From Octopus vulgaris (taxonomy: Eukaryota), in NCBI GenBank assembly GCA_951406725.2, contig OX597817.1, forward strand, positions 14,942,001-15,006,000: 64,000 bases of DNA, written 5' to 3'. This document shows, piece by piece, positions 1 to 38,994 of this stretch. The first letter of the stretch is position 1; every line of letters starts with the position of its first letter. A model generated the notes under the pieces. The model was not told where the DNA came from, did no database searches, and worked only from the letters and a program-made list of their open reading frames with translations. Position numbers and translations under genes: made by a program.

Positions 1-1455
1 ATACACTTCGACTGATGATTTAAGATTAAGATGACAACGACTGAGTGACAGTATAATCTTAAAATAAAGGAATTATGTCGGTTTTAGCTTCTTTTTTATG
101 GTCTTTTTCTGTCTCTCAAACAGCGTGCTTCCTTCCTTTCTCTCGTCTCATCCGGTCTGAACTGTGTCAAAAAGTGAAGGAGAAAAAAAAATGTTTATGG
201 CAGAACATTCAGGATAAAGGTAAAGGTCTTTGTGCAGCCGTGAGACATTAATAAAGGAAATGAGACACAGGTAGGAAGAGAAATTTATCTTCAATTAGTC
301 AGATAATTGCCTGAATAAAAGGCGATATTAAATTACTCGAACTAGCAGCAGAGTGTAGCAGTGCAGCAGGCGGCCATTCGGGTAAAAGTGGAGACGAGAG
401 AAAAAAGACTCTCGATTCGCCTGGAATTGACGGGAAAACAAGATAAATACCTACTTTGAAATAATGTCTAATGTTTTTTCTTGCTCAATGACTATCGAAT
501 AAAACAGAAAGAGGGAGATTTACGGAGTAAACTGTCTCAGAAATGTGCGGAATAAAAACGGGCATAAAATCCAGTGAAACTGCAAAAAAATTTGGACAAA
601 GAAGCTACAGATTGCAAATGGGTAAAGTTCTCAAGCAATTAAGTGTACGGGTTTTTACAAATTTACAGAGGAAAAACACTGGTAAAATATATATATGTAT
701 GTACGTTATGAAAAACGAGAGTAAATGGCGGCTGGCAAAAGTGGACGAACGGGAAATGTCGAAATCCCTTTCTAAAGAGAGGAAAAAAATGACAAGACTC
801 GGTTGGCATTTTGTGTGGAAAAGGATGGGAAAAACATAATGGTTCGAAATAAAAATTAATAGGAATAGGGTAATGGTGATAATACCTGGTTACTGTAGAG
901 TTTGTTGCTTCGTCTGTTAGCAGAGAAAACAGCAGATATTGAAAGAAATGTGGTGAGTTTTTTTTAAAGGAGGAAAAAGGAGTTTCGCTTCCTCCCGTCT
1001 GTCGAATGCCGGAACGAAATCGTTTCTGATTTACGTAAAAAAAAGCAGGCAGGAAATTATTTTATTTTTTATCTGCGATGATGGATGGATATTTTATATA
1101 TATATATAAATATATATATATATAAATATATATATTTATATATCGTTGAGCAGCAGATTTTGGATTTATTTATATTATAATCTAGCTTAGATAAACATCT
1201 AATTGATATGTATGTGTTGGTGGTTGGTTGTTTGGTCCAGAGATGAATGAAGAAATAAATTTTTTTTTGTTTCAAGTGAAGACACTCACCTTAGAGTTTC
1301 TTATCTCCTTTCCTCTCAGAATCTGACTGAATCAATTCTCGCACCAACTTCTCGAGCGAGCCTCGCTTTCACCACCAAACCTCGTCTCACACTCACACTC
1401 ACCCAAACACTCACACTCACACTCAAACACGCACAAACACAACCAAGATGGCAGC
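1..1455. promoter_or_regulatory. CpG-retaining promoter/5' region of MRPL45
   Basis: No recognisable interspersed repeat; CpGs visibly more frequent than in the introns; YY1-like motifs AAATGGCGGC (723-732) and CAAGATGGCAGC overlapping the ATG; (CACACT)n tract at about 1386-1440. Confidence 0.5.
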
Positions 1456-1513
1456 TTCGTTAAGTTTCTCAACTTCGTCAAGGCTTCTCTTTGTTGTTTG
1501 CCGGCAAACTAAG
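1448..1513 (+). CDS. MRPL45: MRPL45 coding exon 1 (probable mitochondrial targeting peptide)
   Basis: ATG in context CAAG-ATG-GCA; encodes MAASLSFSTSSRLLFVVCRQTK (Ser/Arg-rich, no acidic residues); ends AAG|GTCTGA, phase 0, compatible with exon 2. Confidence 0.8.
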
Positions 1514-1922
1514 GTCTGATACCACCACATGATGCATATATTTTATAACATTTGACGGCGATTTGCCCGTTTCACTTCTTTTTTTAACTTCTTTCATACG
1601 ATTTTGTTTAATTACCATTGAATATAAAACGGATCTACTCTGTAAAATCCTTTACTCTGTGTATCTTTTTGTTTTATATTCAACGAAAATCATTAAAAAA
1701 TAAATTGTAAAAGGGGAAAATTCAGTACAAATAGTTTCATAGATTATCAAAATAAAGGAAAACACTTATTTCTTAATTTATTACACCACATGATGCATAT
1801 ATTTTATAACATTTCACTTCTTTCACACGATTTTGTTAACTTATCATTGAATATAAAACGGATCTACTCTGTAAAATCTGTATCTTTTTTTTTATATATT
1901 CAACGAAAATCATTAAAAAATC

Positions 1923-2067
1923 ACAATTGCAGCGTGGAAGGTGTTTGTAAGTCATTTAAGAAACACACAAAAACCCATTAGATTCACTTCAACATTTAAG
2001 TTTAATTTGTCAAAATATTTTCGTCGCTAAAATCCGCGACCTGTTCACTGACAAAAATCCATGCTGC
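1923..2067 (-). mobile_element. 145-bp hammerhead-containing mini-retroelement (Penelope pLTR/retrozyme-like)
   Basis: 14-bp direct repeats ATCATTAAAAAATC at 1909-1922 and 2068-2081; short inverted ends TGCAGCGTGGA/TCCATGCTGCA; absent from the upstream duplicate. Confidence 0.75.
2006..2055 (-). ncRNA. Minimal type-I hammerhead ribozyme motif, G3-C8 core variant
   Basis: Minus strand reads UUUGUCA-GUGAACA-G-GUCGC-GGAUUUUA-GCGAC-GAA-A-AUAU-U-U-UGACAAA: 7-bp stem I, 5-bp stem II, 1-bp stem III with a palindromic loop. Confidence 0.7.
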
Positions 2068-5000
2068 ATCATTAAAAAATCTGTTGAAATAAATAGTAAA
2101 AGGGGAAAATTCAATAGAAATACTTTCATAGATTATCAAAATAAAGGAAAACACTTATTTCTTGATATATTACAAAATGTATCGTTATGTTTTAATGAGT
2201 ACAGCGATTTGATTCTATTGATAAGTGACCTTGAAAGTTTGTCTTTATTCCGAGTTCATGTTATTGTATTTATTTCATCCTACGCAAACTATATACAATG
2301 CGTTAGAACTTTATACTGCCTAATTAAATTAATTAGATATACATATACTTCGTAGTTCTGCTGAAATATTTAATTATTTGGACTATGTTCCAGTTTTGTT
2401 AGCAATGAGTAAATGACTCAACAAATTGTGACATAAAGATAATTTACTAAATAAAAAATTGAACATATGACTTTTAGGATTTAATGAATTAAAATCATAT
2501 TAAAGTTACATTTTATTTTACAGTATAAATTCACCAGATAGGTTTCAAATATAACACTAAAAAAATAGGCTTAAAGTTTATGTATTCAACCCGGGTCAAT
2601 CTTGATCGCGCGACCCTCTCTGATCAAAGGCTTTCCATCTATGACCGGTCTTTTTTGTGGGGTTACTTTATTATTTAGTGGGTGTTTTGAGCAAGATTCA
2701 GTTGACATATGTAACAGGTGAGATACTACGTAAAAGGCCAAAAGGCCCTCACGCTGGTTTGTAATTAAAGGCGTTGAATAATTGTACTTATTGACACGCT
2801 TATAAAGGAATTAAGAAATAATGTAAATAAAAACTAATCATTTTTACGTGTCTTTCTAATTTTAAAATTACAAAATTCATTCATTCCACATCGTCGTCTG
2901 CTCATAACTGCAGAGTATTAATTAATATTACTTTTTTTGCAGTAACTGAAGGTGCCAGATCCCAAGCCCACAGGCATTATATCCTGCAAAACTTGTTCCT
3001 ATTCTTCACAATATACAACATTTAAATACTCGTTTATTATTGAGGACATTCATTAACATTTCTCCAATTCACACTGAGCTTGTATTGTTACTATCACAAA
3101 CTTAATTTCCATAAAATTACTAACTCCTGATCAACTGCATCCGCACTGCCTTGATGCACAAACCTTTGCTCATTACATTACTGTCATAACCTGTCATTCC
3201 ACTTTTTCTTTCACAAATTTATGACCTTTGTGTGTGTGTTATCGTTTTAGCGTCCACTTTTCCATGCTTGCATATATTGGACAGAGTTTATTGAGGCAGA
3301 TTTTCTACGACCGGATGCCCATGTCGCCAACCCCGCCTGTTTCCTAACAATGTAATGTTTCCCCATGGCCAGACATGAGTTCGCGAAATCTTGGAAATGC
3401 TTGTACAACAGTGGCACTTATTTACAACTGTCACACAATGTCAAAACAAGAAGACATAAATACATATATGTATGTTTGAATGTATACGACAGGCTTCTTT
3501 CAGTTTCCTTCTCCCAAATCCTCACATATCTTTGGTTAGCTCAGGTACAAGTAGTTTCACATCAAATATGTAAAAACCAAAAGGGATGCATTATAGATAT
3601 CTGGTTCAAACAATAGACAGGCAAGGACAAAATAGTATTTTATCAAAGCACTATTACTTTGAAATGGTACAAACATACAACACTACTTTTACTACCAATA
3701 TTGGTGGCACGTAAAAAGCACCCACTACACTCTCGGAGTGGTTGGCATTAGGAAGGGCATCCAGCTGTAGAAACTCTGCCAGATCAAGATTGGAGCCTGG
3801 TGCAGCCAGCCCTCAGTCAAAATCGTCCAACCCGTGCTAGCATGGAAAGCGGACGTTAAACGATGATGATGATCTCATGTAAATTTAGACATACCAGTTA
3901 TCAGTGTTGATTGAATTTTTTCTTACAATTCTAAAAGCAATTTTATAAAATCTCTTCCAGTCCTATGTACTCTCCCTACAGAACTGAATCTAAACATAAA
4001 CCCTCTTGTGTACTTTCTAGAATAAATTTTTTTTCTTTATGCCACCATGGGAAACAAACGTTAAATGATGATGACATCATTTTCAGAAAAATTAAAATAT
4101 ATAAATTGCTTTCCCAAGTAATTATAAAAATAAATGAATTCTTAATTTTAGTTCTAAGCTTGTATGTTAATAGTTTCCACTCAAATTTGCTTTAAAAAAG
4201 TTTGAAAGCAAATATTAGTATATAAAACCAAGGTAAAATTAATATGAAGGAATTAATTTCAGACAGTCTTAAGTTATGTAAAAGAATTTTTTAAAATGTC
4301 TGCAAAATATAAGAATAAGGACGATGTTGAGAAATTAAGCAAATAGTGAAACTGACTTGTATGGTAGAAGAAAGTGACAATATTGTCCCTAGGCCTTTGA
4401 AACTTTTGCAGGTCTTTGTTTCATGACTATGTTTTTGTACAGAAGCCGTCTGCAGAATCCAATCTTGAAATCCTTACTGATGGCTAAAATAAAGCAGTTC
4501 AGCAAAAGAGACCAATAGAATAAGTACTGGGCTTACAAAGAATAAGTCCCAGGGTCAATTTGCTCAACTAAAGGCGGTGCTCCAGCATGGCCACAGTCAA
4601 ATGACTGAAACAAGTAAGAGAGAGAGAGAGAGCTAGAAAAAATTTTTTTTTAAAAGGTGGGGGGCTTAAGTTAGCACTACTAATTTTGATCTAATTTAAT
4701 AAGTCATTTCTTAGAGTTAATTTTGATATAATACAAAGAATCTCAGCAATGGCCTTCCTTTGCTTATGTAAACCCTAAATTTGTTAGCTATCAACTACCA
4801 ACTCAACATTTTTTATCCAAATTACTGTTTTCATATTCCCATCTTTTTGCTAGATAATTCATATCTCATATCCTTTCACATTTCATGCTTACGTCGTATA
4901 ATCATAAATTAGTTTTGACATTTACACCACCTACACAAATTTAATCACTCCTAAATGCTACTGTAAACTTTTGTTATCATTTCAACTCTGTTCACAATGC

Positions 5001-6075
5001 TATCATGTAGCTGCAAACATATCAGTGATTTTGGTACCTGAGTACATCTAGGGATGAAAACCATTATAAATCAGTACAATGAACTAGTAGTGGATGACCT
5101 CTGTTCTAAAGTTACCTGCAGATAATCCAATACTCTGTATGAATTGAGAAATATCTTTAGCTTATATATTAGAAAAGTTTTGGACAGAATAGAGCAAGTG
5201 TACCTCTGCATGGTGGCTCACTTTGCTAGAAACTGCAGCCAAATCACCCTTAAATCATACCCTACTCTCTTAACCCTCTGGTGTTTAAACCGGCCATATC
5301 TGGCCGAGATATTTCTTATGTTTTATGTTCAAACTGGTCTGATCTAACCTCTCACACCTACCCTACAATGCCATTCTAAAAATAGACAATAACAGCATCA
5401 AACTCTCAAAGTTATGAGACAATACATCATTAATTCAAAACAATATGAATAAATAAGTTTTATATTTGACAGAGTAATTTGAACCCTAAAGGGTTAAGGG
5501 AGGAAAGATCATTATTTGACACAGTCATAGATGTTCCTAAAAGATGACCTGAATCTTTTTGGTGTTTCTAACATTATATAATATAATATCCTTTCCTGGA
5601 ATGACTTTGATGAGGGTTAACCTAAGACTAAACAATAACTCACAGAATGAACTTGTATCTTCAAAAGGGCAAATTTGATAATGTGATCTGGGTCAAACTT
5701 TTTGAAAAATAAACACAGGTTGGTCATGGCCGAAAAATTTTTCATAATATGGTTGCCTCTTTGGAGCTTGAAAATTGACAATAATTCAACACAAATGATG
5801 TCCCTGAATCAGCAACTTCTTAAAGTGTTGCATTAGTTTAGGTTTTTTGAATGGCTTTTTTTTTTCCTACCTATTTCTGTAAGCTCTCTTTTAATGTCAC
5901 TTCAATTATTCTATTTTGTTCTTGAGTCAGTCAAAAATGGATAGTTATTTACTCCATGGCAAAAGTACAAAGTTGTATGTCATACACACTACAGTATATT
6001 TAAGCAGAAGTTTGCATGTTTCTTTTTAGTTCACAAAAGTAATTGTTAAATTAATATGTATTTGTTTATTTATAG

Positions 6076-37560: not shown

Positions 37561-37896
37561 TTTCCAAACGGTCAAGCCTTTAATAATTGCTTTCTTTTAG
37601 TTACTGTTACATACCTAATTAATAAGCAGGGAGTCTAGGAAGCCAGGGCTGCACCAGGCTCCAGTCTGATCTGGCAGAGTTTCTACAGCTGGATGCCCTT
37701 CCTAACGCCAACCACTCCGCGAGTGTAGTGGGTGCTTTTTACGTGCCACCTGCACAGGTGCCAGGGGGGGGGTCTGGCATCGGCCATGATCGGTTGGTGC
37801 TTTTAACATGCCACCGGCACGGAAGCCAGCCAAGGCAGCGCTGGTATACATATTATTTACATTTGATGGATATTTGTCCTCATCTTGTTCGTTGTT

Positions 37897-37942
37897 AACA
37901 CAACATTTCGGCTGATACATCCTCCAACCATCATCAGGTGTC
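37897..37942 (-). ncRNA. Minimal type-I hammerhead ribozyme motif (canonical CUGAUGA core) in a short repeat at about 37845-37961
   Basis: Minus strand reads GACAC-CUGAUGA-U-GGUUG-GAGGAUGUAU-CAGCC-GAA-A-UG-U-U-GUGUU. Confidence 0.7.
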
Positions 37943-38994
37943 TTGGGGAAATTTTGAACCTAAATATATATATTTAGTGTTTTTGAATATTATCCTTTTA
38001 TTGCGTGAGAAGACTCGGCAGGACAAGTGAGACCATAACCCGTGGCCTCTACCTGGGATGTAGCGAGTCCCATACCTTTCCTTCTTGGGACACAAAACTC
38101 TACTTGCGAAGACCTGTTGAGGCAAGTGAAATCGGAATTGAAATCGAAATCGATGAAAATCAATGGAAATTGTAGTTGTGCCAGTGGCACGTAAGAGAAC
38201 CATCTGAACGTGGCCATTGCCAGTGCCGCCCCAACTGGCCTCTGTGCCGGTGGCACGTAAAAAGCACCATCTGATCGTGACTGTTGCCAGCCTCGTCTGG
38301 TACCTGTGCCGGTGGCACGTAAAAAGCACCCACTACACTCACGGAGTGGTTGGCATTAGGAAGGGCATCCAGCTGTAGAAACACTGCCAGATCAGACTGG
38401 GCCTGGTGCAGCCTCCTAACTTCCCAGACCCCAGTTGAACCGTCCAACCCATGCTAGCATGGAAAGCGGACGTTAAACGATGATGATGATATTATATATC
38501 TGAGAAAGTATGTTGCTATATCCATTTTCCCCTTCCGCTCATTCTTTTATATGTAACTATTACCAACTCCTTGCTGCCACCCCAGTACTGAACCTTTGTT
38601 TTACTCTTCCTGCTCTTCATTGAAGGCTTTGCTACTTCCAGTCTTTCTCTTTCTGTCTTACTTTTTCTATCACTATTTGTTTTTCTTTATTTTTTTATCT
38701 TCTCATTCTTACTACCTGTTTATTATCAAATCATTTTTACCTTCATCTTGCCACCCATCTTCTCTCTTTGTCACACACTTTATCTTTATTTTATCGCTCT
38801 AGTTTATCTTTCTCCCCTTCCTTCAAAAATCAATAGCAGCTAAATTCTTGATTAATGAAGAGCTGGTATTGATTAAGCAGATACATATAATTTCATACTA
38901 GCTGATTTTAAATTAAGTGGGAAGACAAATTTCATAGATGCAAATTCAAAATATGTTAATTACAAATTGTAGTCTTTTACAAAATTTAGCTACA

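Follow-up and report, generated by a model that had tools for sequence, protein, structure and literature searches.

The 145-bp insert described here, carried by a 64,000-nucleotide stretch of Octopus vulgaris DNA (hereafter the window), is a pseudo-LTR copy derived from a Penelope-like element whose autonomous form occurs in this genome too. We consider it highly probable that it is a short pseudo-LTR copy made by internal priming and run-off, whose hammerhead, with a G3-C8 pair in its core, is predicted to keep weak cleavage assisted by dimerisation or protein. Taken as a whole, this real insertion is an ordinary product of a known element class, with a core variant that is unusual and probably selected.

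The insertion and its predicted hammerhead

The insert lies in the second of two tandem copies of host sequence (Table 1), which exceeds the first by 169 bases: the 145-bp insert, an extra 14-mer, and 10 bases that are missing from copy 1 and sit right of the second 14-mer. The 14-mers at 1909-1922 and 2068-2081 are identical. Bases 2070-2068 match element positions +2 to +4 too, so the element measures 145-148 bp and the duplication 11-14 bp. The first-pass annotation had seen a 145-bp insert with a perfect 14-bp target-site duplication, present only in the second host copy, with the empty site preserved next door. The insert, the identical 14-mers and the absence from copy 1 stand, but three bases of the duplication overlap the element end, the size difference is 169 bases and not 159, and the neighbouring site is near-empty, only 13 of the 14 bases being kept and 10 more being missing. 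No third copy of the host duplication was found in the genome as an outgroup for the 10-bp indel and, since the duplication is unique there, the indel cannot be polarised.

No further copy of the 145-bp element occurs elsewhere in the window. The 14-mer was also considered as a terminal repeat of the element itself and ruled out, its flanks being unrelated in other copies. Among 30 solo copies 20 lie within microsatellites. Of the other 10, 6 show target duplications of 8-14 bp, compared with 1 of 90 mismatched control pairs, so the duplication in the window is typical.

Table 1. Coordinates of the insert, its predicted hammerhead and the surrounding host sequence in the window
Feature	Positions	Strand	Basis or remark
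First copy of host tandem duplication, without insert	1523..1785	+	alignment; unique in genome
Near-empty site	1689..1701	+	13 of 14 duplicated bases, then 10-bp gap relative to copy 2
Second copy of host tandem duplication, with insert	1784..2174	+	alignment
Target-site duplication, 3' side of element	1909..1922	+	
Short Penelope-like pseudo-LTR copy	1923..2070	-	begins at +2 of the inferred transcript, ends at the 'short' 3' site
Penelope-like ORF, codons 1-11	1923..1955	-	ATG at 1955; frame homologous to the N-terminus of a sister family
Predicted type I minimal hammerhead motif	2006..2055	-	sequence, fold
Stem I, 7 bp	2055-2049 with 2012-2006	-	
G12 A13 A14, palindrome AAUAUU, U17	2013..2022	-	palindrome is helix III in the dimer
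Stem II, 5 bp	2040-2036 with 2027-2023	-	loop II 2035-2028
Core G3 U4 G5 A6 A7 C8 A9	2041..2048	-	includes one extra G before stem II
Target-site duplication, 5' side of element	2068..2081	+	2068-2070 also match element
Ten bases in copy 2, not in copy 1	2081..2090	+	placement ambiguous by a few bases

The minus strand of the insert had been proposed to fold as a type I hammerhead with a 7-bp stem I and a 5-bp stem II, a reading on which anatomy, fold statistics and descriptor agree. Stems I and II and a palindromic helix III are present, as are all of the conserved core bases U4, G5, A6, A9, G12, A13, A14, A15.1, U16.1 and H17. The core reads GUGAACA (2048-2042, minus strand) with an extra G after A9 (2041), just as first noted; positions 3 and 8 form a Watson-Crick pair, here G3-C8 in place of the usual C3 and G8. 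Stem III was thought to be closed by a palindromic AUAU; loop III is indeed palindromic, but the palindrome is the 6-mer AAUAUU, itself within a 10-mer that includes A13, A14, U17 and U1.1. From hammerhead numbering, the cut is predicted between 2013 (U17) and 2012. The fold has a z of -3.5, with 2 of 200 shuffles folding as well, and a structural descriptor that admits any Watson-Crick 3-8 pair matched two places in the window and none in 20 shuffled windows. An Rfam scan of window positions 1-6000 at E values up to 10 gave three matches with no hammerhead among them, in line with the earlier expectation that standard hammerhead searches miss this motif.

Two other sequences in the window deserve mention. 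A second minimal hammerhead-like motif at 37895-37945 (minus strand), with a canonical core (CUGAUGA...GAAA) and weak stems, is probably a fragment of another Penelope-like family. Sequence similar to 3700-3870, which we take to be a dispersed octopus SINE-like repeat, recurs near 37780-37850 and in many loci.

The autonomous element and the ends of its copies

Other genomic copies, whose existence was to be checked, proved numerous: the exact complete G3-C8 core gave 7,530 matches in a pattern search of the genome, and the 145-bp insert gave 1,360 candidate matches in its own genome, 40 of which were scored. Leaving positions 3 and 8 free in a 21-nt core pattern gave 5,345 matches (control 0); among the first 100 of these matches listed, 93 were G3/C8, 7 carried single changes and none was C3/G8. 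Searches for CUGANGA would indeed miss the family, overlooking approximately 7,500 motifs in this genome. A C3-G8 subfamily within the window family was also considered and rejected: the identical pattern context with C3-G8 occurs 5 times in the genome, and only 2 of the 5 are family copies, as by chance double mutation.

Copies that extend upstream run through approximately 1 kb of microsatellite-rich 3' UTR into a GIY-YIG domain. At one locus (L131) an open frame of 1,025 codons holds RT motifs, a CX3CxxC linker and CCHH residues. Pfam detects GIY-YIG above cut-off in the element ORF (RT, then a C-terminal GIY-YIG); the RT domain was not recognised in the Pfam scan of this ORF, its motifs having been read from the sequence, and a search of solved structures with the element gave one weak RT match. 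Partial-tandem pseudo-LTRs and inverted 5'-truncated copies occur at L133 and L134, the latter in the order inverted truncated copy, partial tandem, pseudo-LTR, ORF, pseudo-LTR. The ORF begins inside the 145 bp, which consist of 5' UTR plus 11 codons and form part of an element longer than 4 kb; the window copy is identical to ORF-linked copies at 141 of 148 bases and stops exactly after codon 11. The idea of a very small non-autonomous family is not supported, and that of a retrotransposed insertion with a Penelope-type minimal hammerhead is upheld. The CX3CxxC linker points to Neptune or Nematis. A published repeat annotation of Octopus vulgaris counts 31 Penelope-like families with recent activity, and its main text is silent on ribozymes (PMC13282606). 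At L062 (1927-4365) a different Penelope-like ORF (RT plus GIY-YIG) adjoins a copy of the window family, and sequence near-identical to the element was found in sequencing runs of four organisms.

The ends of copies were surveyed in the first 45 core matches listed on contig C1, a core-selected sample in which starts beyond +16 are invisible and 7 of the 45 have one common junction. Twenty of these matches stop, like the window copy, at the short site, 19 at a tail site approximately 60 nt farther along and 6 elsewhere; 6 extend upstream of the motif AGATG, 33 start between -2 and +14, and 26 possess a head-to-head inverted arm. The seven loci in question (L109, L111, L140, L141, L144, L145 and L147) have one inverted junction and flank common to all, which points to an insertion multiplied inside another repeat or duplication. 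Among 49 head-to-head inverted pairs, 4 rows of which have a common junction, 38 join a short arm to a tail arm and none joins two short arms.

An extra 5' G before copied sequence is taken as a copied cap. When a base other than the C of the element precedes AGATG, that base is G in 81, A in 13 and T in 6 of the first 100 of 716 matches listed, and G precedes AGATG in 11 of 18 solo junctions, with the caveat that inverted copies often get this G from the other arm and one solo copy got it from the target. At one solo junction the G is outside the target duplication, at another inside. AGATG, which we take to resemble an initiator, is likely the start site, to judge by these junctions, and the extra G is likely a copied cap. 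The strong 5' truncation seen along the element length might suggest that the short copies are ordinary 5' truncations, with RT arrested by the hammerhead fold or a splice junction and with a start that is no capped 5' end; the sequence before the start also resembles a branch point, pyrimidine tract and AG (a 3' splice site), a Drosophila virilis intron end maps at helix I, and solo minimal hammerheads have been ascribed to truncated elements (PMC4209133). However, copies continue beyond the hammerhead and break off sharply 15-20 nt upstream, retain the AG of the supposed acceptor, have no upstream exon in common and gain a G where the element has C, and we regard ordinary truncation as quite improbable.

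Under the run-off model, transcription would begin in the upstream pseudo-LTR, with the A of AGATG as its first base. The element's protein would cut AT-rich DNA and begin cDNA synthesis at one or other of the 3' sites. Priming would yield copies of 145 or 205 nt if it took place in the first pseudo-LTR, and long 5'-truncated ones if in the last. Uncleaved RNA would be the usual template, because the hammerhead is intact in short copies. The window copy would then be run-off cDNA, RT having primed inside the ORF start and run off the capped 5' end. The ends and arm combinations of the octopus copies agree with what is described for an Anolis element, in which two internal RT start sites define the 'tail'; there, cleavage and extension affect both strands of the target, and the RNA that mainly serves as template is uncleaved (PMC11167929). 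They agree also with the one-sided tail and inverted copies that characterise the class (PMC8557442). The protein of a Penelope-like element needed downstream ORF sequence on its template in vitro (PMC11167929). The window copy is without this sequence and, as a monomer lacking the downstream template region, is likely an inert dead end.

The G3-C8 core among relatives and its predicted activity

Two sister families with homologous motifs reside in the same genome. Family B has C3-G8 (90 of 91 pattern matches) and an ORF fragment beside 1 of 30 loci; family C has C3-G8 with A9 changed to C, 57% protein identity and many open frames. A relative at L297 has U3-A8 and, like family C, C9. Hammerheads occur in 32 of 70 related loci taken from metagenome and viral contigs, always on the strand of the ORF; 31 of these are C3-G8 (many redundant), one is U3-A8 and none is G3-C8, the viral contigs contributing one weak locus. 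A tree of 143 columns over these relatives joins families B and C and is otherwise mostly open and weakly resolved. By parsimony over sister families and relatives, G3-C8 is likely the derived state, a compensatory swap that became fixed in a lineage that is active; the double swap would have been fixed because single changes kill the core. The original description of C3G and G8C as compensatory is thus upheld, the 3-8 pair being G-C here, C-G in the sisters and U-A in L297. Family C (L221:48-105 and 4636-4693) is itself very young, with open frames of up to 1,312 codons, and A9 is changed to C in 51 of 51 of its motif copies read. The C3-G8 motif of a further related element (L296:4950-5050) apparently varies to U15.1-A16.1, and the descriptor missed it.

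The proposed test of covariation was borne out in part. In a three-family alignment of 10 rows the 3-8 pair is G-C in five and C-G in five, and one stem II pair and one helix III pair change on both sides, three families giving approximately one event per pair; stem I, on the other hand, is only 67% paired. In 156 copies of the window family, common variants (20% or more) occupy 4 of the 8 loop-II positions and none of the 22 3'-side core and stem positions outside the pattern, and a 13% variant in the 3'-side core and stem positions retains a wobble pair.

To what degree the variant cleaves can be judged from fold models and by analogy. When engineered into the hammerhead of a Penelope-like element, either C3G or G8C by itself destroys cleavage, which is regained in part when both are combined; this ribozyme needed protein for cleavage (PMC11167929). 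Minimal hammerheads of the Penelope class cleave weakly, as dimers (PMC4209133, PMC6765202). Monomeric helix III is predicted to cost 5.4 kcal/mol, and predicted energies are -27.2 kcal/mol for the active dimer versus -26.6 for two monomers and -31.3 for a misfolded dimer. The best monomer fold is predicted to pair G3 with U17. A similar, inactive 3-17 contact has been discussed, and G3-C8 did worse with C17 (PMC3884650); the U17 found here may soften the 3-17 problem. On these grounds weak cleavage activity of the G3-C8 hammerhead seems reasonably likely.

Copies that begin at the predicted cut site are few, at most 52 exact genome matches versus 7,530 with an intact core. Of 30 matches inspected, approximately 13 were read as starting there and 5 as stem-I microhomology; this gives approximately 22 starts versus a rough expectation of 7, a comparison uncontrolled for neighbouring positions and hence a lead only. 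None of the 49 inverted pairs holds a copy starting at the predicted cut site. Two other inverted pairs (L379/L380 and G000 C32:630057-630108) have both arms beginning at that site, as expected if RNA with that 5' end was copied. Contigs from four sequencing runs presumed to be RNA showed no legible transcript start, end or circular joint and were given no weight.

The scarcity of cut-site starts, the predicted G3-U17 pairing and marginal dimer energy, and the change of A9 to C in family C and L297 would all suit a hammerhead of the same origin that is catalytically dead, G3-C8 having drifted in one master and spread as cleavage was unneeded. Hammerhead mutants left insertion in vitro unaffected (PMC11167929), and Naiad elements thrive without canonical hammerheads (PMC8557442). 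Yet two changes that restore one tertiary pair, with the other core bases unchanged, are unlikely without selection, and the contrast between loop II and the core and stems in the 156 copies and the three different Watson-Crick pairs at 3-8 within the clade speak against drift, so that a dead hammerhead appears to us possible but doubtful. The strongest form of the opposite statement, namely that a G3-C8 core fixed in an active lineage proves selected cleavage, that cut-site starts are footprints of cleavage in the animal and that the arrays described below are a retrozyme at birth, is equally tentative.

Multimeric arrays and comparison with known systems

Elsewhere in the genome the family forms head-to-tail arrays of 164-196-nt units with one hammerhead each (L246-L274 on G000 C2, L069, and L276-L292 on C22 and C28), concentrated on contig C28, and one inter-unit junction occurs 80 times on four contigs. 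The 21 array insertions examined contain from 1 to approximately 30 units each. Some open within the UTR, others at the start site or with an arm in inverted orientation; 20 of the 21 stop at either the short or the tail site, and one short match is all that their 3' flanks have in common. Two of the loci (L069 and L070) adjoin C2H2 zinc-finger frames. The arrays seem to descend from a master whose pseudo-LTR had become multimeric and to have been mobilised by the element's protein, and local tandem growth after insertion is a further conceivable source. In its sequence organisation this multimeric subfamily resembles a nascent retrozyme, retrozymes having been proposed to originate from the pseudo-LTR (preprint 10.64898/2026.07.22.740005; PMC7229834). 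The retrozyme-like reading first advanced for the insert therefore fits a separate subfamily with head-to-tail units, but the window copy is a single monomer.

Such arrays raise the question of whether the 145-bp unit is a self-propagating non-autonomous element of SINE or retrozyme type, transcribed, cleaved, circularised and re-copied alone. The one common junction of the multimeric subfamily amid unrelated flanks in the 21 insertions would be expected of such a unit, as would the 39 of the 45 core matches listed on C1 that do not extend upstream, the internal location of the Penelope promoter in the pseudo-LTR (PMC2377424), and one loop-II subtype that is ORF-linked in 0 of 30 cases, in a sample biased against it. 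Nevertheless, the ends coincide with the start site of the autonomous RNA and with two 3' sites in the ORF, UTR-linked copies include three of the four loop-II subtypes, and the arrays, which often begin in the 3' UTR and nearly always end at those two sites, point to a master reading into the ORF. Short copies also lack that part of the ORF which the template needed in vitro (PMC11167929). We find propagation by the unit alone most improbable and retain internal priming on the autonomous element's RNA as the source of the short copies.

If the strongest and tentative reading given above, which takes the fixed G3-C8 core as proof of selected cleavage, is true, thousands of solo animal hammerheads would be start-site run-off copies, and GUGANCA cores would constitute a hidden class. 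The family gives genomic support for internal priming and offers a concrete origin for solo minimal hammerheads, and its arrays provide a local example of a pseudo-LTR turning retrozyme-like. A compensatory change fixed in thousands of copies beside sisters with the standard pair is moreover a natural experiment on hammerhead function. Cleavage was unnecessary in vitro (PMC11167929), and hammerheads in EN+ Penelope-like elements may simply parasitise the element (PMC8557442); the family makes the question of their role testable.

Natural covariation at 3-8 has been reported as U3-A8 (PMC3088659, PMC4209133). In the main texts of the literature that we searched we found no natural G3-C8 hammerhead and no cephalopod hammerhead, and the available text of PMC11014351 likewise gave nothing. 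Against the minimal type I hammerheads described by Cervera and De la Pena 2014 (PMC4209133), the octopus motif has the same extra base between A9 and G10.1, the same G10.1-C11.1 pair and the same palindromic helix III region, and shares with them a preponderance of solo copies and a predicted action as dimers. It differs in its 3-8 variant, which is U3-A8 there and G3-C8 here, and in stem I, which has 4-5 bp there and 7 bp here. Compared with the non-LTR retrozymes (Cervera and De la Pena 2020, PMC7229834; Li et al. 10.64898/2026.07.22.740005), the octopus arrays are alike in being non-coding, tandem and pseudo-LTR-derived, whereas the window copy is a monomer and the motif is minimal rather than canonical.

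The closest parallels are with the Penelope-like elements themselves. EN+ elements of the Neptune/Nematis type (Arkhipova 2006 in PMC8557442) have the same single ORF with RT then GIY-YIG, CX3CxxC linker and CCHH residues. EN+ elements as described in PMC8557442 also have the same partial-tandem pseudo-LTRs, inverted 5'-truncated copies, pseudo-LTR hammerhead, one-sided tail and (TA)n targets, but the tail is 30-40 nt there and approximately 60 nt in the octopus family, where short copies running from the start to the priming site dominate. Poseidon of Anolis carolinensis (Frangieh et al. 2024, PMC11167929) has the same two 3' ends inside the ORF start, the same AT-rich targets and the same use of an uncleaved RNA template, the last of these being inferred in octopus. 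The hammerhead of Poseidon overlaps the ORF start, whereas that of the octopus family lies wholly in the 5' UTR, and the G3-C8 pair that was an engineered rescue in Poseidon is the natural state in the octopus family.
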